Origin: Candidatus Poribacteria bacterium
Lineage (GTDB): Bacteria > Poribacteria > WGA-4E > JAJDTR01
DNA length: 64,000 bases
Assembly (NCBI GenBank): GCA_965222225.1
Contig: CBDCTK010000002.1
Span: 5,056,850-5,120,849, forward strand
Direction: 5' to 3'
The notes beneath the pieces are model-generated. The model did not search any database. It was given only the letters and a program-made list of their open reading frames with translations, and had not been told where the DNA came from. The first letter of the stretch is position 1. Each line of letters begins with the position of its first letter. Of this stretch, positions 1,385 to 53,964 are shown one piece after another. A program made the translations under genes and the position numbers.

Positions 1385-1409
1385 GTCCGATAATTGCAGA
1401 TTATCGGAC
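1385..1409. terminator. perfect 10-bp stem-loop after the three-gene operon
   Basis: GTCCGATAAT-tgcag-ATTATCGGAC directly after the stop at 1380; no U-tract on + (gtttt follows on -). Confidence 0.35.
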
Positions 1410-1977
1410 AAAAAGAAGGCTCATCGGAGTCCATCTCCCCGATGAGCCTAAATTGAAATGCCAAATCCTTATGCCGAGCATGGCGTAAAAAGCCGATGAG
1501 GGCTTTTGGTCTGATTGTCTTCCATCGCGCCTTAGTCCGGTGAATAAGCGATAAAGCGAGATCCACGTTTACAACCGAATACTTTATTCATTTGAATCGG
1601 CGGTGCGCTCATGCCGAGTAGCTGGACGTGCATAGCCCCATGACCAACCGCGTGGACAGAAATTGAAGTCCAGCCGATTGACCACCATATAGCGACGCGG
1701 GATGTTGTGGTTAGGCTTTACTCGATGGACGATAGCGGGGAAGTGTGTTGCGACGTTAAGACCTTGGAATGCCGGAACTGGTTGGAATCGGAATGCGTTC
1801 GTTTGGCACAAAGGTACGTAAACGAGGAATTGAAAGGTTTCGCAAATTGATGTTTTGCGGAAAACCCCCCTCTATTTGCGAAAGAATTGCCTGAAATGGG
1901 AGTTGAAACGAGACAAATGAAGGTATTCTGTTTCAGAGTCAAATCACGGAATGTAGATGCCAGGCGATCTTAGGTCG

Positions 1978-2013
1978 GTTGCAGTCTATGCCCCGATGAA
2001 AAGGGGACTGAAA
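1978..2013 (+). repeat. 36-bp cassette-associated repeat, copy A
   Basis: GTTGCAGTCTATGCCCCGATGAAAAGGGGACTGAAA; near-identical copies at 2680 and 30346. Confidence 0.85.
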
Positions 2014-2119
2014 GTCGAGGCAGGAATGTCGATAAAGCCACCGAATCCACAATATTCGGCTGGTACGTGCGCGATATTACTAAGTTAGTATCTAAACCAC
2101 AGAAAAGGAAGGAGTTACC

Positions 2120-2662
2120 ATGAATAAAGGAATCAGACTCCAGAACGTGCTTCGACGCCTGCTCGTGGTAATACTCGGATTGCTCGTATGGGTTCTCGGA
2201 GTGGTTGTGGCGATCTGTGTTTTGATGCTCATTGGAAAGTATGCCTTCATGCCGATCTATACCGCAGTGAGCCAGCGCGTCACCCCACCGAATTATCAAG
2301 AAGAATGGTCTGGTCGGTGGACGGTAGGCATCAACAAACTCACAACATGGCACTTCCGCCGTGATGGGACATGGACAGTCTCACCTACGAACCCCTTCAT
2401 CATATCTGAAGAAGGCACGTATTCAGTCACCGACACCTCCTTCGTGCTTACCGCTGGCGTCGGCAGTTCGAATGTTGTTAGAGGAACTTGGAACACAATT
2501 GCGGACAAACTTGTCCTGTACATAGAGTCTACCTCGTCTTTCCCTTTTAATCGAGAAGCTCTTGTGTTCGACAAATATATTGAATCAATCGAAGAAAGAA
2601 AACAGCGGATAGGGCAGGAAGGCGGGGTAATGTCGCCGCCGCCGAAGCTAGGTTCTCAATGA
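2120..2662 (+). CDS. membrane-anchored hypothetical protein with beta-rich (lipocalin-like) soluble domain
   Basis: RBS AAGGAG; long N-terminal hydrophobic stretch; WSGRW / FRRDGTW / EGTYSV beta pattern. Confidence 0.7.
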   Translation: MNKGIRLQNVLRRLLVVILGLLVWVLGVVVAICVLMLIGKYAFMPIYTAVSQRVTPPNYQEEWSGRWTVGINKLTTWHFRRDGTWTVSPTNPFIISEEGTYSVTDTSFVLTAGVGSSNVVRGTWNTIADKLVLYIESTSSFPFNREALVFDKYIESIEERKQRIGQEGGVMSPPPKLGSQ

Positions 2663-2715
2663 AAAGCGGACTGAAATGCGTTGCAGTCTATGCCCCGATG
2701 AAAAGGGGACTAAAA
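2659..2715 (+). repeat. right half-site (2659-2676) followed by full 36-bp copy B (2680-2715)
   Basis: ATGAAAAGCGGACTGAAA overlaps the stop of the upstream gene; GTTGCAGTCTATGCCCCGATGAAAAGGGGACTAAAA follows. Confidence 0.85.
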
Positions 2716-2717
2716 GA

Positions 2718-2948
2718 ATGAAAGCCCCCACCCGCGAACGCATCAAAACCGGATTCAAGGTACTGGCAGTAGCCGTCGCCGTCTATGTCGTCATGGTCTG
2801 CGCCGGATACATCGCGCTGCTCAGAGCACCCATGCTCGCCGTCGCCAGCGTGTGGATTATATCCTTCATCACCGGATACATCGTTGAACATCAGAGTTGC
2901 ATTCACTGGCGCGATGAAAAGGGGACTGATCGGACGGTTGGTATATGA
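2718..2948 (+). CDS. small two-TM hypothetical protein
   Basis: ATG 2 nt after repeat B (MKAPTRERIKTGFKVLAVAVAVY...); two hydrophobic helices. Confidence 0.5.
   Translation: MKAPTRERIKTGFKVLAVAVAVYVVMVCAGYIALLRAPMLAVASVWIISFITGYIVEHQSCIHWRDEKGTDRTVGI
2911..2929 (+). repeat. right half-site of the 36-bp repeat
   Basis: GCGATGAAAAGGGGACTGA within the 3' end of the 2718-2948 ORF. Confidence 0.75.
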
Positions 2949-2968
2949 CGGTGCTTTAGCCCTAAAGT

Positions 2969-5900
2969 GTGTTTCGGCAAGAGGCAGTTTTCAAATCGAA
3001 AGGAGAAGTTTTTTTGAATGGGAAGATTTTTTCGACACCTATTGCGCTAGCACTCTGTACAGCCCTAATATGTGTTCCTATGGCATATGCCGAAGAGAAG
3101 GAAAAACAACGGGTTCAACTGAGAGCAGGAGCGGCCTTGCACCGAATCAAATCCTATTCAGAAACCCCTGTCCGTGCACGATGGCATCGGCACCGGGGGA
3201 CAGTCCGCAGTCTTTACAATTTGGCCCTGCCTGTCCCGATAGGAACACTAGAAACATCAATGCGTCAATGCCTTGACGACTACCGTGACCTTTTTGCGAT
3301 GACCGATCCGAGCATTGAACTGCGTGTCACGGATATCCAAAGCAGCTTAACGGGCAGACATGTTCGATTCCATCAATACTACAACGGTATCGAAGTTTAT
3401 GGTGCGACAATCTCCCTCCATACCAACCGTTCTGGGCAGATACGGGTCATCCACAGCAACTACTTCCCACAAATCAATATCAGTACAGTGGCATCGCTCA
3501 CCCCGGAACAGGCGATCGGCATTGCTATTGCCGATGCCCGTGCATTTGATTTGCGCAAGCCGTCGCTTGCCAGCTTGGTAATTTTCCCGAATCGTGATGT
3601 GGGACAGATAGGTGACTATGCCGATGTGTATCGCCTCGCTTACCGCGTAAATTTACATTCCCGTCAACCTCTGGCAAGTTGGGAGTATATCATTGATGCC
3701 AACGCGGGTGAACCGTTGCACCGACGGAACCTACTTAGGTCTGCTGACGGACGGGGGCGTGTTTTTAACCCGAATCCCGTGGTAGCCCTTAAAGATTTTA
3801 TGCTCGTGGATCAGGACGATTCTGCCGACGCAATACCAGAAGCAGCGTACACGGATGTGATTCTGTCTGAGTTGGACGGGAGTGGTTTTCTTGATGGACC
3901 TTACGTGAGTACAAAATTGACCGAAAATCGTGCCAACGAGCCGACGCTGGTGTTCAACTACTTCCGAGATGACCCCCGATTTGAGGAGGTGATGGTTTAT
4001 TATCACGTAGATACAGTCGGGCGTTATGTGAAAGGGCTCGGTTTCGATTTCGTGGACAATTGGCAGATTCCTGCGAATGTACATTTTGGTATGACAAGGG
4101 CTGGTTTCTACGACGATAGCGACGGCTCGATTAATTTCGGAGATGCCGGTGTCGATGTTGCCGAAGATGCCGAAGTGATTGTCCACGAATATGGCCACGC
4201 GATCCTTGATCGACAAGTTCCTGACATTAACAAAGGAGAAGGTGGTGCGATACATGAAGGGTTTAGTGATTTTCTCGCAGCCAGTTTTTTCAGCGCCGTA
4301 AGCGATGGTTTTAGTGACACGCTCGTTTTTGAATGGACTGGTTCAGAAGACCCTGAGGTTGCCACTCGTCCCGTAAATGGTAACAAACGCTATCCCGAAG
4401 ACATTGTAGGTGACCCACACGCCGATGGGGAGATTTGGTCGGCAGCACTATGGGAGATTTTTGAGGCGATTGGACGCGATGCGTCGGTCCGTTTGGTTGT
4501 CGAGAGCCATTTCTTCCTCTCGCCCGACGCGGAATTCGTCGATGGGGCATCGGCAATTCTTATGGCGGACCAAGAACTGAATGGCGGCGTAAATTTGGAC
4601 CTCATCTTGGGGATTATGGAGAACCGGGGATTCTTTACACGCCCCAAATTGGCACTTGATGCCTTTGAGGAGAACGATACAGCGGAGACCGCAGCCATGG
4701 TCAAACTCCCGTATGTCAACGAAGAACTGTCGGTCCATACAGCGGACAATGATGATTACTATAAATTCCGTTTAGATGAGACAATGCAGGTCGGGTTTGG
4801 ACTTGATTTTCAACCCATCTACGGGGAGTTGATGCTAACATTGACGGGCCCCAATAGTATCAAGCTTGTTACCTTTGAAACGAAGGATGTCACATCGCTT
4901 GAATTAGTGCCGGGCGATTATCTCGTTACGGTTTCTGGCATTAATGGTGCAACCAACGATTATAAACTAGCACTCATCATGGACAATCACGGCGATACGC
5001 CTGACACAGCGACACCTGTGTCGATCGGCGACACGATAGAGAGTTTCATTGACTTCAACGGAGATACGGATTTCTTCGTATTTGAAGGAGAGAATGGGCA
5101 GCGCATCGACATCACTGTTACGACTAAGAACTCCGACCTTGACTCTCTGCTCGTTATCTATGGCCCAGATGGCGATCTCTTTGCTAAAAGTGACGATGTC
5201 TTGCCGACCACCGGTCCGGAGCCTGAACTTAATCCGCGTGGTATTGATTCCCGTGTGAATGAAGAGTTACCAGCCGATGGAACGTACCTGCTCGCTGTCA
5301 GCAACATTGCACTTCCCAATCTTAATGTTCCCTTCGGCGGTCTGAACTACTCTTACACGCTGACAATCGGTGGGAAAACCGATGACCATGCAGCCTGCGG
5401 TAGTGGTGAGGAAACGCCGTTGACTTTCGATGAACCTGTAACAGGTGCCATTACTCTTACCGGCGATCCTGCATCTCGTGATCCTCATGACTCGGACGGT
5501 TTCCGCTTTGAAGCGTCAGAGGGCACTGTCATTGCCCTGCGCGTTGAGGTAGAAATGCCTAAACGAGAGGTAATATTCATGGTGACCCAACTTAGTCTTT
5601 TGGATGCGTCTGGGGAAACGTTGGTATCTATTCAGGGCACTCCCAATGGCTTAGAGGTGCGGATTGATGGATTTCTCATCCCTGCCGATGGTGTGTATTG
5701 TGTTGATGTTGCCGGTTTCATAGGAGGCGCGGTCGGTTCCACTTATACCTATGCGCTGACGTTATCCGAGGGCGAACTTCCCGAAGATGACCACGAGGGC
5801 TTAAGAGGGAATCCGACTCCGTTAACGGTGGGGGAACCTGTCGAGGGAGCCATCAGTTTTGCCGGAGATGCCGATGCGTTCCAGTTTACTGCTACAGCAG

Positions 5901-7015
5901 GACAGATCATTACGTTAAAGGTGGGCGGGCAACCCGCCAATCCGTTCTTCAATTTAATTTTGAGTCTGTATAATAGCGATTTGCAGCTTGTAGCAGAGAC
6001 TCCGCTCTTTGTACCAGGTTTTGATTCAATGCTAGAAGGGATTGAAATTCCTGTGGACGGACCTTACTATGCCGAAATTAGAGATACTGCCGGGGGACGT
6101 GGGGTGGATTTTATCTACACACTGACCCTAACAATCGAAGCAGGAGACGGTACGGGTAAATTTCCCCCTTATGATGTCAACCAAGATGGCAAGGTGGACA
6201 TATTTGATCTCGTGCTTGTCGGTCAACATTTCGGCGAAGAATTTATAAACGCCGCGCCAACCGCGGATTTTGGGCGATACCGCTCGGCATCGCCCGAAGC
6301 GGAGCTGAGTCTCCTCATGACCCCAAGTGTGACGGATACACGCCAATTGACCGTCTCAATCCACACCACAGCGGTTGACGACCTTTACGGTTACCATTTC
6401 TCGATCCAGTACGATCCGGCGTTATTAGAACTCCTTACTGCCTTTCCAAGCCCCGTTTTAGATGCTGCACTACACCAAAGTTACTGGCATGTCTCCCAGC
6501 AAGGGACACAACTGGAACTCACACAGACGCGCCAGGGAACGCTGGGAGGTGTGGCGATAGAGGGGGCACTAGCTACACTCGTTTTTCATGTTAAAAAGAC
6601 GGGCCCCCCAGCATCACAACTTCCTATCCAACTCGTTGACCTCCAACTGGCGGATTCGCTGACTAGAGCTATTCCGGTGAAAATGGTTGATGAGCAAGTT
6701 TCAATGACAGAGCTATTCCCTGAACAACCGATGCTGTTGCAAAATTATCCGAACCCGTTTAACCCAGAAACATGGATTCCGTATCAACTCTCTACTGATT
6801 CAGAGGTGATGATCTCAATTTACGATACAAACGGTGCGCGTGTCCGTCGGTTCAACCTCGGTTATCAGCACGTTGGGACATACACTACTCGCGGTAGGGC
6901 GGTCTACTGGGATGGGGAAGACATGTATGGTGAGCCGATTGCAAGCGGCTTATATTTCTATCAGATTCGGGCGGGGGATTATGCTCAAGTGCGACGGATG
7001 GTAATCCTTAAATAG
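2969..7015 (+). CDS. secreted M36/M4-family zinc metallopeptidase with FTP/PepSY propeptide, PPC repeats, dockerin-like repeat, cohesin-like domain and C-terminal FlgD-Ig/T9SS-like sorting domain
   Basis: Signal peptide; GRHVRFHQYYNGIEVYG (FTP); HEYGH and HEGFSD zinc ligands; repeated DDH...GAI...D.D.F.F PPC units; DVNQDGKVDIFDLVLVGQHFGE; LLQNYPNPFNPETWIPYQL. Confidence 0.9.
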   Translation: MFRQEAVFKSKGEVFLNGKIFSTPIALALCTALICVPMAYAEEKEKQRVQLRAGAALHRIKSYSETPVRARWHRHRGTVRSLYNLALPVPIGTLETSMRQCLDDYRDLFAMTDPSIELRVTDIQSSLTGRHVRFHQYYNGIEVYGATISLHTNRSGQIRVIHSNYFPQINISTVASLTPEQAIGIAIADARAFDLRKPSLASLVIFPNRDVGQIGDYADVYRLAYRVNLHSRQPLASWEYIIDANAGEPLHRRNLLRSADGRGRVFNPNPVVALKDFMLVDQDDSADAIPEAAYTDVILSELDGSGFLDGPYVSTKLTENRANEPTLVFNYFRDDPRFEEVMVYYHVDTVGRYVKGLGFDFVDNWQIPANVHFGMTRAGFYDDSDGSINFGDAGVDVAEDAEVIVHEYGHAILDRQVPDINKGEGGAIHEGFSDFLAASFFSAVSDGFSDTLVFEWTGSEDPEVATRPVNGNKRYPEDIVGDPHADGEIWSAALWEIFEAIGRDASVRLVVESHFFLSPDAEFVDGASAILMADQELNGGVNLDLILGIMENRGFFTRPKLALDAFEENDTAETAAMVKLPYVNEELSVHTADNDDYYKFRLDETMQVGFGLDFQPIYGELMLTLTGPNSIKLVTFETKDVTSLELVPGDYLVTVSGINGATNDYKLALIMDNHGDTPDTATPVSIGDTIESFIDFNGDTDFFVFEGENGQRIDITVTTKNSDLDSLLVIYGPDGDLFAKSDDVLPTTGPEPELNPRGIDSRVNEELPADGTYLLAVSNIALPNLNVPFGGLNYSYTLTIGGKTDDHAACGSGEETPLTFDEPVTGAITLTGDPASRDPHDSDGFRFEASEGTVIALRVEVEMPKREVIFMVTQLSLLDASGETLVSIQGTPNGLEVRIDGFLIPADGVYCVDVAGFIGGAVGSTYTYALTLSEGELPEDDHEGLRGNPTPLTVGEPVEGAISFAGDADAFQFTATAGQIITLKVGGQPANPFFNLILSLYNSDLQLVAETPLFVPGFDSMLEGIEIPVDGPYYAEIRDTAGGRGVDFIYTLTLTIEAGDGTGKFPPYDVNQDGKVDIFDLVLVGQHFGEEFINAAPTADFGRYRSASPEAELSLLMTPSVTDTRQLTVSIHTTAVDDLYGYHFSIQYDPALLELLTAFPSPVLDAALHQSYWHVSQQGTQLELTQTRQGTLGGVAIEGALATLVFHVKKTGPPASQLPIQLVDLQLADSLTRAIPVKMVDEQVSMTELFPEQPMLLQNYPNPFNPETWIPYQLSTDSEVMISIYDTNGARVRRFNLGYQHVGTYTTRGRAVYWDGEDMYGEPIASGLYFYQIRAGDYAQVRRMVILK

Positions 7016-9317: not shown

Positions 9318-9645
9318 GAGCCTGTCTGAAAAATGGTGGCAAAGCTATTTTCGATCGTTTTAGTGCCATGTATCTGTGGGATCCCTATCGCACGGGATTT
9401 TCTATCGCGCGCGCTATTCGCTTGCTTGATCGTTATCCACTCGTTTAATCCCCGCTGGAGCTTTGATTTTGTGGTGAATCCCAGTTACTATACACCTAGC
9501 GCTCCGCTGAGGCCTAGGCGTGCAGGGGTTCGGTGCTTCTATACATCTTTGAAGATTCCATGTGCCATTTGAGGATTACCAAGGGATTTCTACTGCGCTC
9601 ACTAGAAGATCCCTATCGTGGTCGCTATTCGCTTCCTTGATCTTT
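9318..9645. repeat. MITE-like left end plus REP cluster
   Basis: GAGCCTGTCTGAA matches the TIR of the 16711 MITE; contains GGGATTTTCTATCG..GCTATTCGCT..TTGATC units (9394, 9608) and a CTATACACC..CGCTCCGCTG unit (9488-9548). Confidence 0.55.
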
Positions 9646-9786: not shown

Positions 9787-10872
9787 ATGGCAACGGCAAA
9801 TGGGAAGCCGGGCTTCATTCAGGCGGGTTGGCCTGTGATTGATTGTGACCTCCACAACCGATTACCGTCACTCGAAATGCTCTACCCGTACCTGCCAGAC
9901 TACTGGGTAGATCATTGCAGGGATTCGGGCTTCTATGGGCCTGATGCAAATGATTATCCGCTTGGCGCACCGACCTCAACGCGACCCGGAATTACGGAGC
10001 CTTCAGAAGACCGCCCCGCATCAGATTTGGCTCTCCTACGCGAACATGCCCTAGACGCCTGGGACGTAGATTGTGGCATACTTACCTGCGCATATCGCGT
10101 ACAGAGCGTACACAATGAAGACCTCGCAGCAGCGCTTGCCTCTGCGGTCAATGATTGGCAGATTGAACATTGGCTAAATCCTGAGCCGCGGCTCAAGGCT
10201 TCTCTGATTGTACCGAGCCAGAATCCGGAGCTGGCAGCGCGAGAAATCGATCGGTTGGGCAATCACCCGGGCTTTGTGCAGGTGATGCTGCCGGTGCGCT
10301 CGCAGGCGCCCTACGGCAACAGACGTTACCATCCTATTTATGCCGCCGCTTGTAGGCATGACCTTGTGGTCGGCATCCATTACGGCGGCGCACCCGGTTT
10401 GCCTCCAACCTCCGTTGGTTGGCCCTCAACCTATCTGGAAGAATATGTGGGCATGTCACAGGTGTTTCAAGCGCAGGTGCTCAGTTTGGTGTCGGAGGGA
10501 GCTTTTGACCAGTTCCCCGATTTGCGCGTGGCGTTGATTGAGGGAGGCTTCACATGGATGCCGTCGCTAATGTGGCGGTTTGACAAGGACTGGCGCGGCT
10601 TGCGACGGTTGACGCCGTGGGTCAAACGACTGCCATCCGAATATATCCGTGAACACATCCGCCTGACACTCCAGCCAATTGATTCGCCTCCAACCGCGGA
10701 ACAGTTGCTTCAGATTATCGGGCAGCTCGATTCGGAGGACCTATTGATGTTCTCGACAGACTACCCTCATTGGCACTTTGACGCTCCTGAAGAGGCCTTT
10801 CCGTCGAAGATACCCAAGACATTGGCTCGCAAGATTCTATCTGAAAATGCGAGGGAATTTTACCGGCTTTGA
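9787..10872 (+). CDS. amidohydrolase_2-fold protein (divergent paralog; AibH1-like candidate)
   Basis: IDCDLH, GIHYGG, LIEGG, FSTDYPHWHFD, ENAREFY. Confidence 0.85.
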   Translation: MATANGKPGFIQAGWPVIDCDLHNRLPSLEMLYPYLPDYWVDHCRDSGFYGPDANDYPLGAPTSTRPGITEPSEDRPASDLALLREHALDAWDVDCGILTCAYRVQSVHNEDLAAALASAVNDWQIEHWLNPEPRLKASLIVPSQNPELAAREIDRLGNHPGFVQVMLPVRSQAPYGNRRYHPIYAAACRHDLVVGIHYGGAPGLPPTSVGWPSTYLEEYVGMSQVFQAQVLSLVSEGAFDQFPDLRVALIEGGFTWMPSLMWRFDKDWRGLRRLTPWVKRLPSEYIREHIRLTLQPIDSPPTAEQLLQIIGQLDSEDLLMFSTDYPHWHFDAPEEAFPSKIPKTLARKILSENAREFYRL

Positions 10873-10983
10873 AAGCACTAAAGAGAAGTGACGCCGTTGC
10901 GGTTGTTAAGGTGAATCTGGTTAAGCATCTCAAATTAGGGTTTTTGTGGTTTGTTGATTTTTTTGCTGGGCAGGTATGTGGTT

Positions 10984-11729
10984 ATGAATCAGGAATTTGA
11001 AAAGAGTCCGAAACTTCAGAAGTGGCTGCATTGGATGGAGACGATTCGTAACGAGATTTCGGGGCTCCTTCGCGACGAAAGCATGTTTTTGGAAATCCAG
11101 GACATTATCCGTGAGAATCCACGGATGCGCAAACCTAATGTTTTCTATGGCTATCTTCGAAGGACATACCTTTCTCATGCACTAGCAGGATTACGTCGGC
11201 AAATCAAACCGCATAAAGATAGCATATCCTTAGTGGGACTGCTTGAGGAGTTTGCAAAGAACCCCGAAGAATTGTCTTTTAGGTATTATTGCTCCATCCT
11301 GTCTGAACCTGCTGCCGGCCAAGGGAGTCTATGACCAAAGAAGATTTCAAACAGTATGCAGACCCTAATGAACAGCATGTATGTCCAAAGATGATTGAGG
11401 CCGATTTGGGGAGTTTCAAATTTGCAATAGGAGTTGCTGAGGAGTATGTTGATAAACGTATTGCGCATTGGGATAAGAGCGAGCCAGAACTCGTACCAAC
11501 TTCCAGCGAAACCAGCCAGTGCTTTTATTTGCTCGAAATGGCGTACGTTAAATACCATCTACTGTTTTATGCGAAAAGGCTCGACACGTTGACGCCAATC
11601 TATCAACACAACTGGAAGGATATTTTCCTTGAACCGTGGATAAAAACTGGATTTGGGAGTGCAAAAGGACGCATTCATGTAGCTGAAGATTTTGACGCTG
11701 AATTACCTGAGTTCAGTGAGGACATATAA
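10984..11729 (+). pseudogene. split/frameshifted HEPN (AbiU2-like) gene
   Basis: Two ORFs (10984-11334, 11331-11729) with ATGA overlap; LRRQ..HKDSISLVGLL in part 1 and YVDKRIAH...KY..LF...PIYQHNWKDIF.EPW in part 2 look like halves of one AbiU2-type protein. Confidence 0.45.
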
Positions 11730-11750
11730 CGACTAACAACTGCTGAGAAA

Positions 11751-12842
11751 ATGGACACTGATGCCGTACAATTGAATACAACGCCAAAACGACGAAAGTT
11801 GCCAATCATCGATTGCGATGTACATAACACCCTAGCGTCAGATAAGGTGCTGTATCCCTATTTGTCAAAGCGGTGGCTTAGACATCACGAAATGCTGGAG
11901 ACGCCCGATAAAGTCGGGGGATATATTGCTCGCGGTATGCCGTACGGCGCCCGGAACGACGCATGGCCGCCCTCCGGGGAACGTCCGGGCTCCGACTTAA
12001 ACTTTCTTCGGGAACAGTTGCTAGACCTCTGGGATATTGAGGTCGGAATCCTGAATTGTCTTACCGCCGTGCCCGACATGCCCAATCTGGAGTACGCCGC
12101 AGCGTTCGCACGGGCGGTGAATGACTGGCAGATTGATAAGTGGCTGGAACCCGAACCGCGCCTGAGGGCGTCGATTACTGTTGTCTGCGATGATGGTGAA
12201 TTGGCGGCTGAGGAAATCAACCGACTAGGCGATAACCCCGGCTTTGTGCAGGTGTTGGTACTTGCGCGTACAATGGAGCCCTTGGGGCGCCGGAAATACT
12301 GGAAGATGTATGAGGCTGCGGGAGGTCACAATCTTCCGATTGGCATCCATTTCACCGGCGTTGGAGCGGGGCCAATCACTGCTGTCGGCAGTCCTTCACA
12401 CTACATCGAAGACCATACGGGGATGACGCAGGCGTTTCAGACGCAGGTCACGAGTTTGGTGTGCGAGGGCGTTTTCGAGCACTTCCCAACGCTCAAGATT
12501 GTTTTGATTGAAGCTGGCTTTGGTTGGTTGCCGCCACTGATGTGGCGACTTGACCGCGCCTGGAAGAAGTTGAGTGATGAAGTGCCATATTTAAGGCGGT
12601 TGCCATCGGAGTATATTCATGACCATTTCTGGATGACAACGCAGCCAGTGGAGGAACCGTCCAAACAGGAGTATTTTCAGCAGTTGATCGCTAACATCAA
12701 TGCAGATGAAAAACTGATGTTTGCTACTGACTACCCGCATTGGGATTTTGATTCACCGGAGTATGCCATTCCCAAGAACCTATCGCCGGATCTAAGATGG
12801 AAAATCATGGCGGAGAATGCTCGAAACTTCTATCGCTTTTGA
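11751..12842 (+). CDS. amidohydrolase_2-fold protein (AibH2/PtmU3-like candidate)
   Basis: IDCDVH, GIHFTG, LIEAG, FATDYPHWDFD. Confidence 0.85.
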   Translation: MDTDAVQLNTTPKRRKLPIIDCDVHNTLASDKVLYPYLSKRWLRHHEMLETPDKVGGYIARGMPYGARNDAWPPSGERPGSDLNFLREQLLDLWDIEVGILNCLTAVPDMPNLEYAAAFARAVNDWQIDKWLEPEPRLRASITVVCDDGELAAEEINRLGDNPGFVQVLVLARTMEPLGRRKYWKMYEAAGGHNLPIGIHFTGVGAGPITAVGSPSHYIEDHTGMTQAFQTQVTSLVCEGVFEHFPTLKIVLIEAGFGWLPPLMWRLDRAWKKLSDEVPYLRRLPSEYIHDHFWMTTQPVEEPSKQEYFQQLIANINADEKLMFATDYPHWDFDSPEYAIPKNLSPDLRWKIMAENARNFYRF

Positions 12843-12978
12843 TGACAATTATTTCCCATAATATCAGTACATCGCTCAACATGAATTGGCACACAGAGAC
12901 CAGATTAATGAGTTACTCGGCAGAAACTTTTCTCGTTTAAGTAGGTTGATTGAAGGTTGAACCAAGGAGGACAGAAAG

Positions 12979-14067
12979 ATGGCGGCAACTGAGACACACA
13001 CGAATCCATCGGCAACCCGACGGAAAATGCCCGTAATTGATTGTGACATTCACAATGCCGTACCTTCGCACAAGGCGCTGCACCCGTATATGTCAGAGCG
13101 TTGGCGAAGGCATCTTGAAATGGTGGGGACCCCCGCTCGAAATGGCTCTTATATCCCGCGTGGCGTGCCATACGCGGCTAGAAAGGATGCCTGGCCCCCT
13201 TCCGGCAAAGCGCCCGGTTCGGACCTGAAGTTCATGCAAGATCAGCTGCTTGACCACTGGAACATCGAATATGGGGTTCTAAACTGTTTAATCTTCCAAG
13301 ATATGCGCAGCGTGGAATTCAATGCCGCGCTGTCGCGCGCAGTTAACGACTGGCAAATCGAGGAATGGATCAAGCCCGACCCAAGGCTGAGAGCGTCAAT
13401 CTTGGTTCCGTTTGAAGATGGCGACCTGGCCGCGGATGAAATTGATCGGCTTGGAGCTCACCCGGGGTTTGTGCAAGTCCTACTCGTCGCTCGCACGATG
13501 GAACCCCTTGGAAGGCGCCGCTATTGGAAGATTTACGAGGCGGCGGTGCGACATGACCTTACGATTGGGATTCACTTCGGCGGCCTCGGTGTTGGTTCAA
13601 TCACCTCTGCAGGCAAACCTTCACACTACATTGAAGACCATGCGGGGATGTGCCAAGTGTTTCAGACGCAAGTGACCAGTTTAGTGTGCGAGGGGGTCTT
13701 CGAACACTTTCCTACGCTTAAGGTGGTGCTAATCGAAGGAGGATTTGCTTGGTTGCCACCACTGATGTGGCGGCTTGAGCGCTCTTGGAAAATGCTGAGG
13801 GAGGAAGTTCCGTATTTGAAACGCTCCCCGTCAGAATATATTCGTGAGCATTTCTGGCTAAGCACGCAGCCGATGGAAGAACCACCCAAGCAGGAATATT
13901 TTCAGCAGTTGCTTGAGCATATCAACGCCGATGAAAAATTGATGTTCGCAACAGACTATCCACACTGGGACTTTGATTCGCCGGGCCATGCGCTTCCCAA
14001 GAACCTAAACCCCAATTTGAGGCGGCGAATCATGGCTGAGAATGCTCGTGCCCTGTACCAATTCTAA
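12979..14067 (+). CDS. amidohydrolase_2-fold protein, close paralog of 11751-12842
   Basis: IDCDIH, GIHFGG, LIEGG, FATDYPHWDFD; long near-identical blocks shared with the preceding gene. Confidence 0.85.
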   Translation: MAATETHTNPSATRRKMPVIDCDIHNAVPSHKALHPYMSERWRRHLEMVGTPARNGSYIPRGVPYAARKDAWPPSGKAPGSDLKFMQDQLLDHWNIEYGVLNCLIFQDMRSVEFNAALSRAVNDWQIEEWIKPDPRLRASILVPFEDGDLAADEIDRLGAHPGFVQVLLVARTMEPLGRRRYWKIYEAAVRHDLTIGIHFGGLGVGSITSAGKPSHYIEDHAGMCQVFQTQVTSLVCEGVFEHFPTLKVVLIEGGFAWLPPLMWRLERSWKMLREEVPYLKRSPSEYIREHFWLSTQPMEEPPKQEYFQQLLEHINADEKLMFATDYPHWDFDSPGHALPKNLNPNLRRRIMAENARALYQF

Positions 14068-14950: not shown

Positions 14951-15110
14951 CTGTAGGAGATCAAGCGAACGAATAGTGAGTGCGATAGAGATCTTCTCGA
15001 GGTCGCGACTTCTTATCGCGAGCAGAGCTCGCTCCTACAGGAGACGCACAATAAAGGGATTTCTATCGTCCTCGCTGTTCGCTCGGTTAATCTATTCGCT
15101 CCATTGATCG
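14951..15110. repeat. GTAG-type REP / REPIN-like composite
   Basis: CTGTAGGAG (14951) / CTCCTACAG (15032-15040) inverted ends; GTAGGAGCGAGCTCTGCTCGCGA palindrome on -; GGGATTTCTATCG family copies at 14959-14993 (-) and 15056 (+). Confidence 0.7.
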
Positions 15111-16710: not shown

Positions 16711-16956
16711 GAACCTGTTTGAATAATCGATAGGAAAGCCATTTTTGGTCATTTGTGGGAAGTTCTTCCATGTCTTAATTGTTGCCTGCTACGTACCTGT
16801 CGCCCCGCTGGGGCTTAGGTGCACGGGGTTTTGGCGTTTCTATACACCTTCATGGATCTCTATCGCAGTCGCTATTCGCTCCCTTGATCCCACTCTGGGG
16901 CTTTTAGAGGCTGGTGCGCAGTGCGCACCCTACAAATGTACTTTTCAAACAGGCTC
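16711..16956. mobile_element. 246-bp non-autonomous MITE (IS5/PIF-like)
   Basis: 13-bp TIRs GAACCTGTTTGAA / TTCAAACAGGCTC (12/13 match); TAA on both flanks (16708-16710, 16957-16959); no transposase. Confidence 0.65.
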
Positions 16957-25502: not shown

Positions 25503-26357
25503 TCAGGTGAAGCATTCATCAAAAAATCTTATGAAAATCTCATCATCTTTTCTGCGATTATATTTCCAGCAAGACTCCATGATATACAGTGGCAGCCACT
25601 TCTTGCTGTAGTGATGATGCGTTCCGTAGAATGACCTCTTGACACAAGCCCAAAACGACTCGATGGTGTTGGTGTGAGTTACGCCGTCCTCAGAAACATA
25701 TCTCTCTTGGTGATGGATAACATGTCTTTCGATATCTTCGTCCAGACTATTGTAAGAGCGAAATTCATCAGTCATAAGAATAGACTCATCGGGTGAGACA
25801 TTGCTAAGGATGAATTCTCTGATATTTTCACCAGATAGAACCTTCATGAATTTAGCAACCACCCGACCGCCTCTCTCGACTACGCCGATGACGGGAGATT
25901 TATTTGTGCCTCTACCTCTCTTAGATTTTGCTCTGGGTTTGCCGCCGACATAGGTTTCGTCCGCTTCAACTATCCCTTTCAGCAATTCATCACTATCACT
26001 CATTTTCTCACGGAGGCGCATTGCCATATACCAAGCGGACTTTTGATTCATGTCCAAGTCACGAGCAAGCTGACAACTCGATATGCTTTTCTTGGCATTG
26101 GAAAGAATTGAGATAGCCAAAAACCATTTCTGGAGAGGTATCTTGGTACCATGGAAGATGGTTCCTGCTGTAGCCGAAAAGCTAGATTCACAATCGTAGC
26201 AATTCCAACCAGTAGTAATGTCGTTTTTGTTCTTGCGTCCAACTTTTTCACTGCCACAGTGGATACAGCAAACACCGTCCTTCCAACGTTTTTCCTCTAT
26301 AAATCTGAGACAAGATTCTTGATTTGGAAACTCTTTCATAAGATTCAAAATGTCCAT
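25503..26357 (-). CDS. IS1595-family transposase (intact)
   Basis: CIHC/CYDC zinc ribbon; GTIFHGTKIPLQKWF; VEADETYVGG, LMTDE, HTNTIESFW, KYNRR. Confidence 0.9.
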   Translation of the reverse strand: MDILNLMKEFPNQESCLRFIEEKRWKDGVCCIHCGSEKVGRKNKNDITTGWNCYDCESSFSATAGTIFHGTKIPLQKWFLAISILSNAKKSISSCQLARDLDMNQKSAWYMAMRLREKMSDSDELLKGIVEADETYVGGKPRAKSKRGRGTNKSPVIGVVERGGRVVAKFMKVLSGENIREFILSNVSPDESILMTDEFRSYNSLDEDIERHVIHHQERYVSEDGVTHTNTIESFWACVKRSFYGTHHHYSKKWLPLYIMESCWKYNRRKDDEIFIRFFDECFT

Positions 26358-29728: not shown

Positions 29729-29937
29729 GAGTGGGGAGGTGTTACAATTACGACTTGTGCTAGTTGATATAGGCTATGCGAAAACGAAGTCTTTGATTTC
29801 GATGAACTGATAGAGCGTTGGGATGACTGGAAGCGTTACAGACATCCCAGTTTTTTATCGATATTTCCTCTCCCTAATATATAGCACGATTGGAATTTTC
29901 CATCTTACAAAAAAAAGACTGAGCATGCCCACTCATT

Positions 29938-29973
29938 GTTGTAGTCTATGACGCGATAAAAAACAGACTAAAA
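29938..29973 (+). repeat. 36-bp repeat copy D (degenerate)
   Basis: GTTGTAGTCTATGACGCGATAAAAAACAGACTAAAA. Confidence 0.7.
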
Positions 29974-29994
29974 ATTGGAATAAGGGTAAACATA

Positions 29995-30282
29995 ATGGAA
30001 AATACGACAGTAATGCTTGTGGCGATTCTAGTAGCGGTTTGGGGGTTGATAATTGGCATCATTGCTCATTAGTGGTATATCACCAAGGCTTTGAACTCAG
30101 AGGCATTGAACTCAAAGATAAACCGAGATGACTTGAAACGCCTAAGAGATGATTTCAACCGCTTGAGAAATGACATGAGTGTTCGCCAGTTGCTGTTTCA
30201 GCATGTGAGTGACCACGAGAAGCACGCCAACGCTGGCCAGGTGCGCAAGCATGGACGACGAACTAATGATAGAAAAGGGTGA
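29995..30282 (+). pseudogene. TM + coiled-coil small protein interrupted by TAG (30070-30072)
   Basis: MENTTVMLVAILVAVWGLIIGIIAH*WYITKALNSEALNSKINRDDLKRLRDDFNRLRND... in one frame. Confidence 0.5.
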
Positions 30283-30345
30283 GATGTACCGATGGAGCAT
30301 TGTGGGGTAAAAGTTAGTCGCATAGGGTTCTATTTCAACGGGGCG

Positions 30346-30381
30346 GTTGCAGTCTATGACGCGATGAAAAGCGGACTGAAA
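30346..30381 (+). repeat. 36-bp repeat copy E
   Basis: GTTGCAGTCTATGACGCGATGAAAAGCGGACTGAAA, 13 nt before ATG 30395. Confidence 0.85.
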
Positions 30382-30394
30382 AAAAGGATCCGAT

Positions 30395-31009
30395 ATGTCG
30401 TTCAAATCGATGTTGAATGAAATTGGACAGGAGTTGCCAGCACTAAATCTGACTGGAGTACTCGTTGTTTTCGGCATTGGTTTTTCAAGGTTAATCTATA
30501 AATTAGTGAGATTAGCGGAACATAAATGCTTCGCGAAACGTTTTCTCGCAAAATATACTCAAATGCTAAATGATGAGCAGACCGCCGCCGAATCGTATGA
30601 ATGGTTACTTGACCATCTATCCCAGATAAAAAGGGAAATGAGAGCACACGGAGATAGTAACTATGCTCACATAAGTCACATCATATCAACTTTACATGAT
30701 CGCCCTCCGGTACTCGCTCCCAATTTGGATGATGTTTGCGTAGATTTAAGGAAATATATCGGTACACTTTCTTATTCGATCCGAATACAGTGCAAACATG
30801 TTTGGCGTTTTCCTTTGTGGCCAATTGTATTGCCAATGCAAGTCGTAGAGCTGGTTGTGGTTGATATAATACTGCGATTTAGCAAAACCGCTGACTTTAA
30901 TTCGCACAGTAGCCATCCCGTGATCTGGACAATCAAGATAATATTTGCCGTGTATACCTTTATCGCTGGCTGGGATGCAGTCGTGAAAAAAATTAAAGAG
31001 ATTTTCTGA
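30395..31009 (+). CDS. hypothetical membrane protein
   Basis: 204 aa with an N-terminal TM and two C-terminal hydrophobic segments. Confidence 0.6.
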   Translation: MSFKSMLNEIGQELPALNLTGVLVVFGIGFSRLIYKLVRLAEHKCFAKRFLAKYTQMLNDEQTAAESYEWLLDHLSQIKREMRAHGDSNYAHISHIISTLHDRPPVLAPNLDDVCVDLRKYIGTLSYSIRIQCKHVWRFPLWPIVLPMQVVELVVVDIILRFSKTADFNSHSSHPVIWTIKIIFAVYTFIAGWDAVVKKIKEIF

Positions 31010-31043
31010 GTTGTAAACCTGTCGTTTCTTGTCGTTTACACTG

Positions 31044-31073
31044 GTTATAGTCTATGTCTTGATGAAAAGGGGG
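31044..31073 (+). repeat. 36-bp repeat copy F (partial)
   Basis: GTTATAGTCTATGTCTTGATGAAAAGGGGG. Confidence 0.65.
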
Positions 31074-31333
31074 CGTCGGTGCCATCATTCTACCTGCCAA
31101 GTTGTACGAACCCGCCATTTTGGATAAACCTCGTTGGCCAATTAGTGACCAAAAGACTCCTCCGTTTGTCTAGTCGTTGGTTATTCACTTGTTCGTTGAA
31201 ACACAAAACACATCTCAATGGGCAATGAACAGGTGAATAACCACACTTTGTATTCCGCAGAAATGTGTGGATACCTACCCGAACAGTTAAGCAGAACAAC
31301 TCACCGAACTCTACCCTGAATAAGGAGACCTCT

Positions 31334-32254
31334 ATGACCGATTTTATCGATTTTCACGACATCTTCCATGAAATACAAGAAAAATCCAAGGATGGAAACT
31401 ACATTTACCGCGGGGAACCTAATTGCACAGAATCAGATAAACACGGCGGAAAAGTATCGTCTCGTCTGTGGCGTGAATGTGTGAAACATAACATTCGTGA
31501 TGTCGAAGACTTCCAGAAAACAAGAATTGAATACGCAAAAAGACATACAACGTCCGACGCACAGGAGTGGGCGATACTTACTGAAATTCAACACTACGGT
31601 GGTGATACAAACCTTATCGACTTTACGACAAGTTGCTTCGTCGCTCTCTTCTTTGCGTGCAATGGTCATTTCGACAAAGATGGGCGTGTAATCGTACAAA
31701 ACCTGAATGAACACCAATCCCGTATTATGCGACCTAGTGGCCCAGTTAATCGTGTTCATGCCCAAAAAAGTATTTTCATGCGTCACGAAAAGGGTTATTT
31801 TGAACCCAAGGAAAGTGAACTAATCAAAATCCCGTCAAAGTTCAAAGAAGAATTGCTAACACACCTAGACAGATATCATGACATATCTGTCGTAACTATC
31901 TATAACGACCTTTATGGTTACATCCAATACCAACACTACCATGGTACTGCCGAAGAGCATTTTTCTAAGGGTATAGGCTGTGAACAAAGCAATGAGTTGG
32001 TAAGAGCTATGGAACATTATGACCGGGCCATTCAATTAAATCGCAATTTCGCGGGGGCATATTTCCGTCGCGGACAACTTCACTACAACAAAACTGCACC
32101 CGAAGACCGCGCGAGAGCTGTTGACGACTTTCGGAGAGCTGTGGAGATAGTGTCCGATTATTATCATGATTTACCGCCAGATATCCAAAAAATAATATTT
32201 CCTCCGCTTCCTAATTTATCCATACTAGGACAATCCACTAACCAAACACTGTAA
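31334..32254 (+). CDS. FRG domain protein with C-terminal TPR
   Basis: YIYRGE, QHYGG.TNLIDFT....VALFFAC, RVHAQKSIF; AMEHYDRAIQLNRNFAGAYFRRG TPR; RBS AAGGAG. Confidence 0.8.
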   Translation: MTDFIDFHDIFHEIQEKSKDGNYIYRGEPNCTESDKHGGKVSSRLWRECVKHNIRDVEDFQKTRIEYAKRHTTSDAQEWAILTEIQHYGGDTNLIDFTTSCFVALFFACNGHFDKDGRVIVQNLNEHQSRIMRPSGPVNRVHAQKSIFMRHEKGYFEPKESELIKIPSKFKEELLTHLDRYHDISVVTIYNDLYGYIQYQHYHGTAEEHFSKGIGCEQSNELVRAMEHYDRAIQLNRNFAGAYFRRGQLHYNKTAPEDRARAVDDFRRAVEIVSDYYHDLPPDIQKIIFPPLPNLSILGQSTNQTL

Positions 32255-52439: not shown

Positions 52440-52554
52440 GTCGGGAATGCCGTAGGTGGGCATTCCGATGCCCGACAGTAGGAATTGAATTAAGGCTATC
52501 GCCTTGGGATTTCTATCACATTCGACATTCGCTCAGTTAATCGATAGAAATCCC
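52440..52554. repeat. GTAG-type REP plus GGGATTTCTATC inverted-repeat unit between convergent mqnD and queC
   Basis: GTCGGG...GTAGGTGGGCATTCCGATGCCCGAC; perfect 12-bp IR GGGATTTCTATC (52506) / GATAGAAATCCC (52543-52554). Confidence 0.7.
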
Positions 52555-53491: not shown

Positions 53492-53865
53492 GCTTGAGTT
53501 GGGTAGATGATCGCGTTTCGAGAAATCGGGATGAGGAAAGTCCGGACTCCGTAGGGCGGGATGCTGGGTAACACCCAGGAGCGGCGACGCTATGGAAAGT
53601 GCAACAGAAAGCAGACTACAACGCATCGCGCGTTGTACAGGTGAAACGGTGTGGTAAAAGCGCACCAGTCCCGGTGGAGACACCGGGAGCTTGGCAAACC
53701 CCATCCGGAGCAAGGCTAAATAGGAGGACATTGCAGGCGCGCCCGCCTCGTCCTCGGGTAAAGCCGCTTGAGGTCGGTGGCGACACCGATCCCAGATGAA
53801 TGACCATCACCCTGATGAGCGAAAGCGAATCGGGGAACAGAATCCGGCTTATTCCCAGCTCAAGC
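53492..53865 (+). ncRNA. rnpB: RNase P RNA, class A
   Basis: GAGGAAAGTCCGGACT, GGAAAGTGCAACAGAAA, GGTGAAACGG, GGCAAACCCC, ACAGAATCCGGCTTA; P1 GCTTGAGTTGGG/CCCAGCTCAAGC; extended -10 TGtTATCAT upstream. Confidence 0.97.
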
Positions 53866-53964
53866 GCCCTTCTAATTAAAGTTGAACAATCTCCGAATCA
53901 CGATGGTCGGGAATTGGAATTCCCTTCTACATGCGACATTTTGACGCAAAACTTAGGATATAAC

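Follow-up and report, generated by a model that had tools for sequence, protein, structure and literature searches.

What is the hairpin repeat that brackets two small membrane-protein genes near one end of a 64-kb stretch of Candidatus Poribacteria DNA (contig CBDCTK010000002.1, positions 5,056,850 to 5,120,849; the whole stretch is called the window below), and how do genes come to lie between its copies? A previous sequence-only reading had taken the unit for a non-canonical cassette recombination site or, alternatively, for a leader hairpin that hides a ribosome-binding site. We identify it as the direct repeat of a class 1 (type I) CRISPR-Cas system of Candidatus Poribacteria that depends on Cas6, and find that window positions 1838-2932 are the leader and the old, leader-distal end of a strain-variable array. 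The CRISPR repeat and array are in themselves known; the new element is an arrangement in which whole, sense-oriented genes fill spacer positions, found in six genomes and polymorphic between strains. A literature search of incomplete coverage returned no report of protein genes between CRISPR repeats. An array with its leader and gene-sized "spacers", which we observe, together with transcription from the leader and Cas6 cutting into mRNAs, which we infer, very probably form the best joint explanation of the locus.

The repeat and its leader

Reading the sequence from 1500 to 3500 bore out the order and coordinates previously given for the repeats of this first locus, with one correction of length: the full unit measures 37 nt, not 36 bp. 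It stands as GTTGCAGTCTATGCCCCGATGAAAAGGGGACTGAAAG at 1978-2014 (repeat A) and, with 1 mismatch, at 2680-2716 (repeat B). With up to 3 mismatches allowed, the 37-mer has 2 matches in the window compared with 0 in 100 shuffles. The 17-nt right half, GATGAAAAG(G/C)GGACTGA, occurs at 1995, 2658, 2697, 2913 and 30363, and again with up to 3 mismatches it gives six matches against 0.17 expected. The sixth, at 30625, is probably due to chance; the weak repeat-like stretch around it (GATAAAAAGGGAAATGA, 30608-30644) lies inside a 204-aa gene, mismatches the right half at 3 of 17 positions and was missed by the covariance model. This model, the building of which had been suggested earlier, returned six significant copies in the window (1978, 2680, 30346, 2896, 2641 and 29938), every one on the + strand, and none on the - strand. 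The copies are all direct, and the repeat was not found to be the end of an insertion sequence (IS) or of a miniature inverted-repeat transposable element (MITE). Start-to-start spacings are 702, 216, 408 and 698 bp, and no ordinary spacer of ~30-40 bp is present within the window.

Searching related genomes for the repeat led to CRISPR arrays. In a scan that took one genome per species, the exact 37-mer was found in one genome only, the Candidatus Poribacteria metagenome-assembled genome OZ246960.1, where six repeats follow each other at 72-73-bp spacing behind a homologous leader (locus L002). Since this array is regular and the sequence upstream of it is ~90% identical to that of the window, the unit is a CRISPR array repeat and window 1838-1977 (+ strand) is a CRISPR leader. 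The leader ends in ...GATCTTAGGTCG, directly abutting the first repeat, and carries the motifs TTTCGCAAAT...TGCGGAAAA...ATTTGCGAAAGAA, common to the leaders of L023 and L118, while its GGTCG leader-repeat junction is common to most other aligned Poribacteria arrays. Using a looser scan, arrays of 18-52 copies with matching hairpin and handle were found in many Poribacteria genomes. One of them (L014) is adjoined by Cas1, Cas4 and the C-terminal part of Cas3, and L060 holds a 312-aa Cas6 (PF10040) and a Cas3 with C-terminal HD domain. The nearest curated repeat families are Rfam CRISPR-DR32 and CRISPR-DR10, to which both full copies align at full length on the + strand, all below the gathering threshold (RF01342: 30.8 and 27 bits, threshold 48; RF01323: 23.5 and 20.2 bits, threshold 39).

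The unit had been proposed to fold into an outer AGTC/ACT and an inner CCCC/GGGG stem. Such a fold is its minimum-free-energy structure and the inner stem is conserved and covaries, whereas the outer stem is not conserved, with pairs 7-31 and 8-30 mostly unpaired across 40 related repeats. From species to species the repeat varies in its left 13 nt and keeps the module CCCC-GATGAAAA-GGGG-ACTGAAAG, with a stem of 4 bp, a loop of 8 nt and a tail of 8 nt. Two compensating stem forms exist, CCCC/GGGG and CCGC/GCGG; at pair 16-27, 21 of the 40 distinct repeats have C-G, 16 have G-C and 3 are unpaired. The inner helix is 88.8% paired over this set, and no shuffle reached the observed covariation. 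As the stem covaries, the module acts as RNA. In Cas6-type repeats, the 8-nt tail that follows the hairpin is the 5' handle left by Cas6. In repeat A (+ strand, 57.6 bits in the covariance model; its exact 37-mer recurs in the L002 array) the stem is formed by 1991-1994 and 2003-2006 around the loop GATGAAAA, followed by the predicted handle ACTGAAAG at 2007-2014.

The locus thus resembles Cas6-processed type I arrays in its 37-nt repeat, covarying 4-bp hairpin, 8-nt tail ending in GAAAG, conserved leader, 29-43-nt leader-end spacers, degenerate terminal repeat and in the cas1, cas4, cas3 and cas6 genes beside sister arrays. It differs from them in the sense-oriented genes (61-619 aa) that sit in spacer positions, both in the window and in five other Poribacteria genomes, and in the absence of any ordinary spacer from the window copy and of cas genes from the 64 kb.

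Strain variants show that the leader is that of an array which takes up spacers. The exact protein of the first bracketed gene (gene 1) was found on 13 public contigs, always after the last full repeat, and ten of these places were read (L119-L128). All ten have the leader, repeats, gene 1, a broken repeat, the dinucleotide GC, repeat B and then a gene for an M36 peptidase with type IX secretion system (T9SS) sorting tail. In the variants, the stretch from leader to gene 1 holds 1-8 repeats and 0-5 ordinary, strain-specific spacers that differ from each other and measure 29-43 nt, the newly added ones adjoining the leader. Two leader-distal spacers are common to two strains, one of which has an extra spacer at the leader end, a pattern that addition at this end would predict. 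Strain-specific spacers behind the same leader indicate that it takes up spacers, the window's strain being one without an ordinary spacer. Genes 1 and 2 accordingly lie in the position of the oldest spacers. The spacer turnover between strains suggests that the window's own genome encodes cas genes. Contigs of 0.1-1.9 Mb from long reads are among the assemblies of the variants, so the layout is not a repeat-induced misassembly. An apparent variant lacking both genes (joint 2015->2895, run X5) was rejected, its contigs belonging to another species' array with a repeat resembling the 2896 copy.

The same data bear on the idea that the repeats are viral or plasmid mimics, i.e. RNA anti-CRISPRs in the form of solitary repeat units that soak up Cas6 or other Cas proteins, a concept known for viral solitary repeats (Nature 2023, PMC10651486). 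Solitary repeats with intact hairpins do exist in the phylum, and a second locus of the window lies in a strain-variable island. However, locus 1 is part of the chromosome, possesses a leader and takes up spacers, and neither locus is accompanied by phage or plasmid genes. Among 2.9 million viral contigs, none matches the 23-mer of hairpin plus handle exactly, and no relative of gene 1 was found in this collection. We consider this explanation close to refuted and give it next to no weight.

Sequence before the array varies as well. At L119 (2074-3316), and likewise at L120, L122, L124 and L125, the gene set preceding the array differs from that of the window. The L119-type order is a HicA toxin gene, a solitary full repeat behind a truncated leader start, genes for 147-aa and 94-aa proteins, and the full leader. 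Modularity and strain variation thus extend to the sequence that precedes the array. A conserved small open reading frame (ORF) or element (…SMDDSGEVCCDVKTLECRNWLESECVRLAQ…) lies just before the leader (window 1707-1850). The SMDDSGEVCCDVKTLECRNWLESECVRLAQ element is also found near repeat-bearing modules at L001 (~3340-3420) and L123 (~1020-1150), where the latter copy ends in repeat-like CTCGATGAAAAGCGGGCCGTAAG.

Genes in spacer positions

Gene 1 (2120-2662, + strand) fills the first "spacer" position. This ORF, preceded by the Shine-Dalgarno sequence AAGGAAGGAG, encodes a 180-aa protein whose N-terminus carries a membrane anchor (residues 5-42 contain the hydrophobic segments). Its stop codon, TGA at 2660-2662, falls in the loop of a broken repeat copy (2641-2677, + strand, 31.5 bits in the covariance model). 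The broken copy, present in 10/10 strain variants, is of the second, GCGG stem type also found in other Poribacteria arrays; it retains loop, 3' stem and handle (2658-2677), and its fold is no better than that of shuffles. Just two bases separate it from repeat B (2680-2716, + strand), which is intact, has the handle ACTAAAAG and keeps its hairpin in the centroid fold when flanks are included. Repeat B ends 1 nt before the start of gene 2 (2718-2948, + strand), a strain-variable gene for a 76-aa protein with two membrane helices. After the second gene a right half-site had been described; 2896-2932 (+ strand) is in fact a degenerate full repeat with handle ACTGATCG (42.6 bits, no hairpin in its fold), translated as the C-terminal tail of gene 2, and no bare half-site exists there.

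The two genes differ in how stable they are between strains. The sequence-only reading had expected genes to vary while flanks stay fixed. Gene 2 is indeed present in 7/10 and absent from 3/10 of the variants (L120, L124 and L125, from two samples), with the gene 1 and M36 flanks fixed, whereas gene 1 itself never varies among the ten. Variants without gene 2 carry an exact hybrid repeat, GTTGCAGTCTATGCCCCGATGAAAAGGGGACTGATCG, made of the left part of repeat B and the right end of the 2896 copy, with the junction inside the shared 16-nt core GATGAAAAGGGGACT. The flanking direct repeats make the gene 2 unit removable. Its absence is the product that recombination or slippage between the flanking copies would be expected to leave; read backwards, the hybrid would be the empty site for insertion of a circle of repeat plus gene, and the data fit both directions equally. 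A paralogue of gene 2 at L123 (288-533; dN/dS ~0.47 over 62 codons) has the same layout, with a repeat upstream and a degenerate repeat translated at its 3' end. Gene 1 has a homologue in L001; homologue searches otherwise returned the same locus only, including a noisy long-read copy. For the window's three embedded proteins (those of genes 1 and 2 and the 204-aa protein below), no family was found in Pfam, NCBIfam or PADLOC.

In these respects the locus is reminiscent of integron cassettes (attC, IntI, Pc), and one may ask whether an attC-like folded site is cut and joined in its GATGAAAA core by an unlinked recombinase that moves circular cassettes. The genes are co-oriented, small, diverse and apparently promoterless, are bounded by foldable repeats and lie behind one upstream promoter-bearing region. 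Presence and absence of the gene 2 unit are joined inside the repeat core, the flanking copies are mosaics of "array" and "unit" halves, the gene 2 paralogue retains its 3' repeat as cassettes keep attC, and in other genomes a MITE enters the same loop position. Against this stand a site that is a bona fide CRISPR repeat, with near-identical copies rather than variable attC with R and L boxes, and the fact that recombination between direct repeats suffices for the same product, with no circular form and no sign of single-strand recombination observed here. The earlier statement that attC cores are missing holds, since GTTGCAG does not match GTTRRRY, the opposite end lacks an inverse core and the 37-mer copies are near-identical; so does the statement that the window has no integrase, for the 30 large ORFs scanned. 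The search for a linked enzyme that the reading had proposed gave no tyrosine or serine recombinase and no HUH enzyme, neither in the window nor beside the related loci read. We therefore regard an integron-like system as improbable. Of the cassette proposal, gain and loss of units at the repeat core survives and the identity of the site does not, as it is a CRISPR repeat behind a leader.

Two repeat subtypes exist in the species, GTTGCAGTCTATG-CCCC…GGGG and GTTGCACTCACTG-ACGC…GCGG, and gene-adjacent copies are often mosaics of the two (2641-2677, 2896-2932, 30346-30382; L123 134-170).

A second locus (29938-31080) has the layout of locus 1 without a leader and sits inside a strain-variable island. 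Its first member is a degenerate repeat (29938-29974, + strand; covariance model E = 0.003, a copy outside the training set), and a 25-codon hydrophobic ORF (29996-30073) begins 21 nt after it. The next repeat (30346-30382, + strand, 52.9 bits) differs from the 37-mer at 4 positions and combines a type-1 left half with a type-2, compensated CGC/GCG stem. It forms a hairpin in both minimum-free-energy and centroid folds, 12 nt before the ATG at 30395 of an ORF (30395-31009, + strand) for a 204-aa membrane protein with hydrophobic segments at 16-34 and 140-158 and a homologue at L001 (6551-6976). Beyond this gene, which thus lies between two repeat copies, a remnant (31044-31080, + strand; covariance model weak, E = 5.3) keeps the left half and GATGAAAAGGGG, has lost the handle and was accepted on position and orientation. 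Read depth over the island (~29750-31300) is 2-6 compared with 58-98 in the flanks, including a BaxI-like neighbour gene (runs X3 and X4), and the same comparison indicates that in two other samples the island is missing from most strains. The points at which other strains' contigs diverge are 29749/29750 and ~31300, and a gene for an FRG-domain/TPR protein follows the island (31334-32254). Exact-protein look-ups for strain variants of locus 2 found no record.

To survey such genes, we collected, at the Poribacteria loci examined, all intervals of 120-3500 bp that separate one repeat copy from the next co-oriented one. The intervals fall into two classes, seven with a MITE and no gene and ~12 with genes. 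All of the latter (~12/12) have their genes sense to the repeats, with 0 antisense. Repeat-bracketed genes occur in five other Poribacteria genomes (L086, L118, L100, L020 and L002). In L086, two intact repeats enclose the gene of a secreted 619-aa LRR/GHL15 protein, with 40 nt between the first repeat and the start of the gene and 9 nt between its stop and the second repeat; the following gene, for a 61-aa membrane protein, lies 16 nt after its upstream repeat and 31 nt before the subsequent one, and the pair stands within a regular array with ordinary repeat-spacer units on both sides. The bracketed genes encode a bPH_2 membrane protein in L118, a 367-aa protein in L100 and two lipoproteins in L020; in L002, two genes lie after the last repeat and before a half repeat. 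In function the cargo is mixed (LRR/GHL15, bPH_2, unknowns), and it has no match to known defence families. Where a gene closely follows a solitary or terminal repeat, its protein mostly starts with a signal peptide, lipobox or membrane helix. At L093 (2424-2460, - strand), a solitary perfect hairpin with handle (CCGC/GCGG type) separates nuoA from nuoB at a distance of 12 nt from the start of the latter, which places a CRISPR repeat module inside a housekeeping operon.

Proposed expression of the embedded genes

In the proposed scheme, transcription from the leader promoter would run through the embedded genes. Cas6 would bind each intact hairpin and cut at its 3' base, after G2006, G2708 and G30374. 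The downstream RNA would then start with ACUGAAAG, ACUAAAAG or ACUGAAAA, and the upstream RNA would retain the Cas6-bound hairpin, such that a precursor is converted into single mRNAs with protected ends. The degenerate copies at 2641, 2896, 29938 and 31044 should stay uncut, their proposed inertness following from the loss of their fold. The predicted 5' ends are fixed to the nucleotide (2007, 2709 and 30375), which makes the proposal directly testable.

For gene 2, fold prediction places the Shine-Dalgarno-like GGGG (2705-2708, 9 nt before ATG 2718) in the stem of the uncut RNA; the predicted cut would remove this GGGG, the only Shine-Dalgarno-like one, and a 9-nt leader would remain. The alternative of a leader hairpin hiding the ribosome-binding site is apt for gene 2 but does not extend to the other genes, where the distance from repeat to start codon ranges from 1 to ~180 nt. 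With regard to transcription, metatranscriptome assemblies of two studies contain the gene-1 unit. A scan of 1400-3200 for + strand terminators returned no terminator-like site, none lying between the leader and the M36 gene, and a promoter scan gave 0 promoter-like sites; both scans were uninformative.

Several points stand against this explanation. The gene units have a type-1 repeat upstream and a degenerate, type-2-like copy downstream, and mixed flank subtypes are not predicted by simple repeat duplication through Cas1-Cas2; the genes could instead lie at junctions of decayed neighbouring arrays. Contigs from RNA runs break at repeats as those from DNA runs do, which has an assembly cause, and RNA runs may contain DNA; the breaks are consequently silent on processing. 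The genes called in L119-L128 all share one strand, and gene islands of this kind may account for part of the co-orientation. No cas genes were found within the 64-kb window among the 30 large ORFs scanned. Finally, arrays in the phylum also hold MITEs and IS elements, which makes passive accumulation of genes a live alternative.

This alternative is the main rival: a decaying array end or junction where genes, MITEs and IS elements landed or were trapped, the repeats being passive debris with no role in expression or movement. It accounts for the distal copies that are degenerate and no longer fold, for the different repeat subtypes flanking each gene and for the embedded genes being functionally unrelated; MITEs and an IS3-type fragment interrupt arrays in the phylum, and slippage between direct repeats suffices for the loss of gene 2. 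Less easily reconciled with debris are the co-orientation of ~12/12 gene-bearing intervals with their array and the L086 genes, which are fitted into the interior of a working array with gaps of 9-40 nt to intact repeats. In addition, the upstream repeats (1978, 2680 and 30346) are intact or compensated while the downstream ones decay, and solitary copies in other genomes have lost the left 13 nt but retain hairpin and handle in perfect form, as if the RNA module were under selection. Weighing these points, we hold debris to be a serious possibility, though clearly the less likely one. Even in this case, programs that search for arrays would overlook or split those of this type, and a CRISPR repeat can be mistaken for a new recombination site on first reading of a sequence.

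Small membrane proteins are also typical toxin candidates, and the repeats could in principle belong to a CRISPR RNA (crRNA)-like regulator or a CRISPR-guarded toxin (crlRNA, CreTA, CreR). The solitary or degenerate repeats would then yield crRNA-like RNAs that guide a Cas complex to repress nearby promoters, and the membrane proteins would be toxins released upon inhibition of CRISPR-Cas. The crlRNA design is a repeat-like unit plus a spacer-like segment of crRNA length, usually with a 3' hairpin (bioRxiv 10.1101/2024.12.27.630466). The locus shares with crlRNA, CreR and CreTA units (bioRxiv 10.1101/2024.12.27.630466, 10.1101/2024.01.05.574328) irregularly spaced, partly degenerate repeats near toxin-like small membrane proteins, and the phylum does have mini-arrays of this kind at L060 and L097. 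Unlike in those units, no crRNA-sized segment is present here: the window has no second hairpin at crRNA distance, with gaps of 179-626 nt or, at 2678-2679, of 2 nt. The seven post-repeat segments, searched against the window in a seed-type manner (18 nt, every 6th position ignored, up to 3 mismatches), gave chance-level matches only, with no complementarity to nearby promoters. Furthermore, there are no adjacent cas genes in the window, and the locus, with its full leader, acquires ordinary spacers in other strains. A regulator or guarded toxin hence appears to have little chance of being correct.

The mini-arrays themselves (L060 3723-3845 and L097 ~6330-6454, both on the - strand) consist of a repeat-like hairpin with handle, a spacer-like stretch of 39-44 nt and a second repeat-like hairpin. 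Their spacer-like stretches share gaatcaatcatYtccca. They lie directly upstream of cas6-cas3 in L060, where a WYL regulator gene is found upstream, and of a gene for a 915-aa HD-domain protein in L097, and look like a crRNA-like autoregulator of the cas operon.

Returning to leader-driven transcription with Cas6 cutting, the closest likeness is to an engineered device. In synthetic Cas6/Csy4-insulated operons, attributed to work of Qi et al. in 2012, hairpins reportedly stand between genes and the nuclease cuts the polycistronic RNA into defined mRNAs. The Poribacteria locus shares the repeat-gene-repeat-gene layout and the hairpin just upstream of the ribosome-binding site; it differs in being natural, with processing that is proposed and not engineered. 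No description of a natural counterpart was found in our literature search. A further parallel is the extraneous crRNA made from the terminal repeat of type II-C arrays, an unwanted by-product of arrays with no genes between repeats (PMC12080349). There as here, the last repeat makes the downstream sequence the body of a repeat-derived RNA, which at the Poribacteria locus would be an mRNA.

How genes entered the array may be explained by repeat-repeat recombination, including re-insertion of excised circles, or by aberrant long-insert integration through Cas1-Cas2, both of which are candidates. More speculatively, Poribacteria arrays may double as an integron-like platform for gene capture and expression, in which the repeat is at once recombination site and Cas6 signal and one leader transcript is cut into end-protected mRNAs for secreted and membrane proteins; we regard this broader proposal as doubtful. 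If the genes are expressed via the array, Cas6 and the leader would gain a non-immune job in mRNA maturation and in driving accessory genes, and CRISPR repeats would also be handles for gene shuffling between strains. The locus would then be the natural counterpart of synthetic Cas6-insulated operons and a bridge between CRISPR arrays and integrons.

Mobile elements and neighbouring genes

The MITE found in arrays of the phylum is ~130 bp long with inverted ends of 30-35 nt (GATCAAGCGAnCGnATAGnGAGnGCGATAG), and one complete copy lies in the window at 14959-15092. Solo end-like units are located at 9397-9431, 9608-9642, 16855-16889 and 52508-52542, and the element also occurs at L047 760-1215, L105 2176-3720, L107, L013 7140-7207, L067 3180-3244 and L117 160. 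In other Poribacteria genomes it lies within CRISPR repeats, always directly after GATGAAAAG(G/C), which looks like a target preference for the repeat loop. Insertion leaves a truncated left repeat and a right "half repeat", CCCGATGAAAAGGGGACTGAAAG. Several solitary half-sites elsewhere result from MITE insertion; the half-site at 2658 is not explained in this way.

Downstream of locus 1, the fixed flank is the gene for a secreted M36 (fungalysin-type) peptidase with a T9SS sorting tail (3014-7015, + strand), assigned by the Pfam matches FTP, Peptidase_M36, PPC and Por_Secre_tail in the strain variants. Its start is probably the TTG at 3014, the ORF finder giving a GTG at 2969. Further along the window, three tandem paralogous Amidohydro_2 genes (9787-14067, + strand) make up repeat families D1/D2, and an IS1595-family transposase gene (25503-26357, - strand) is the sole transposase found. 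A bacterial class A RNase P RNA is encoded at 53495-53866 (+ strand, 301.8 bits).

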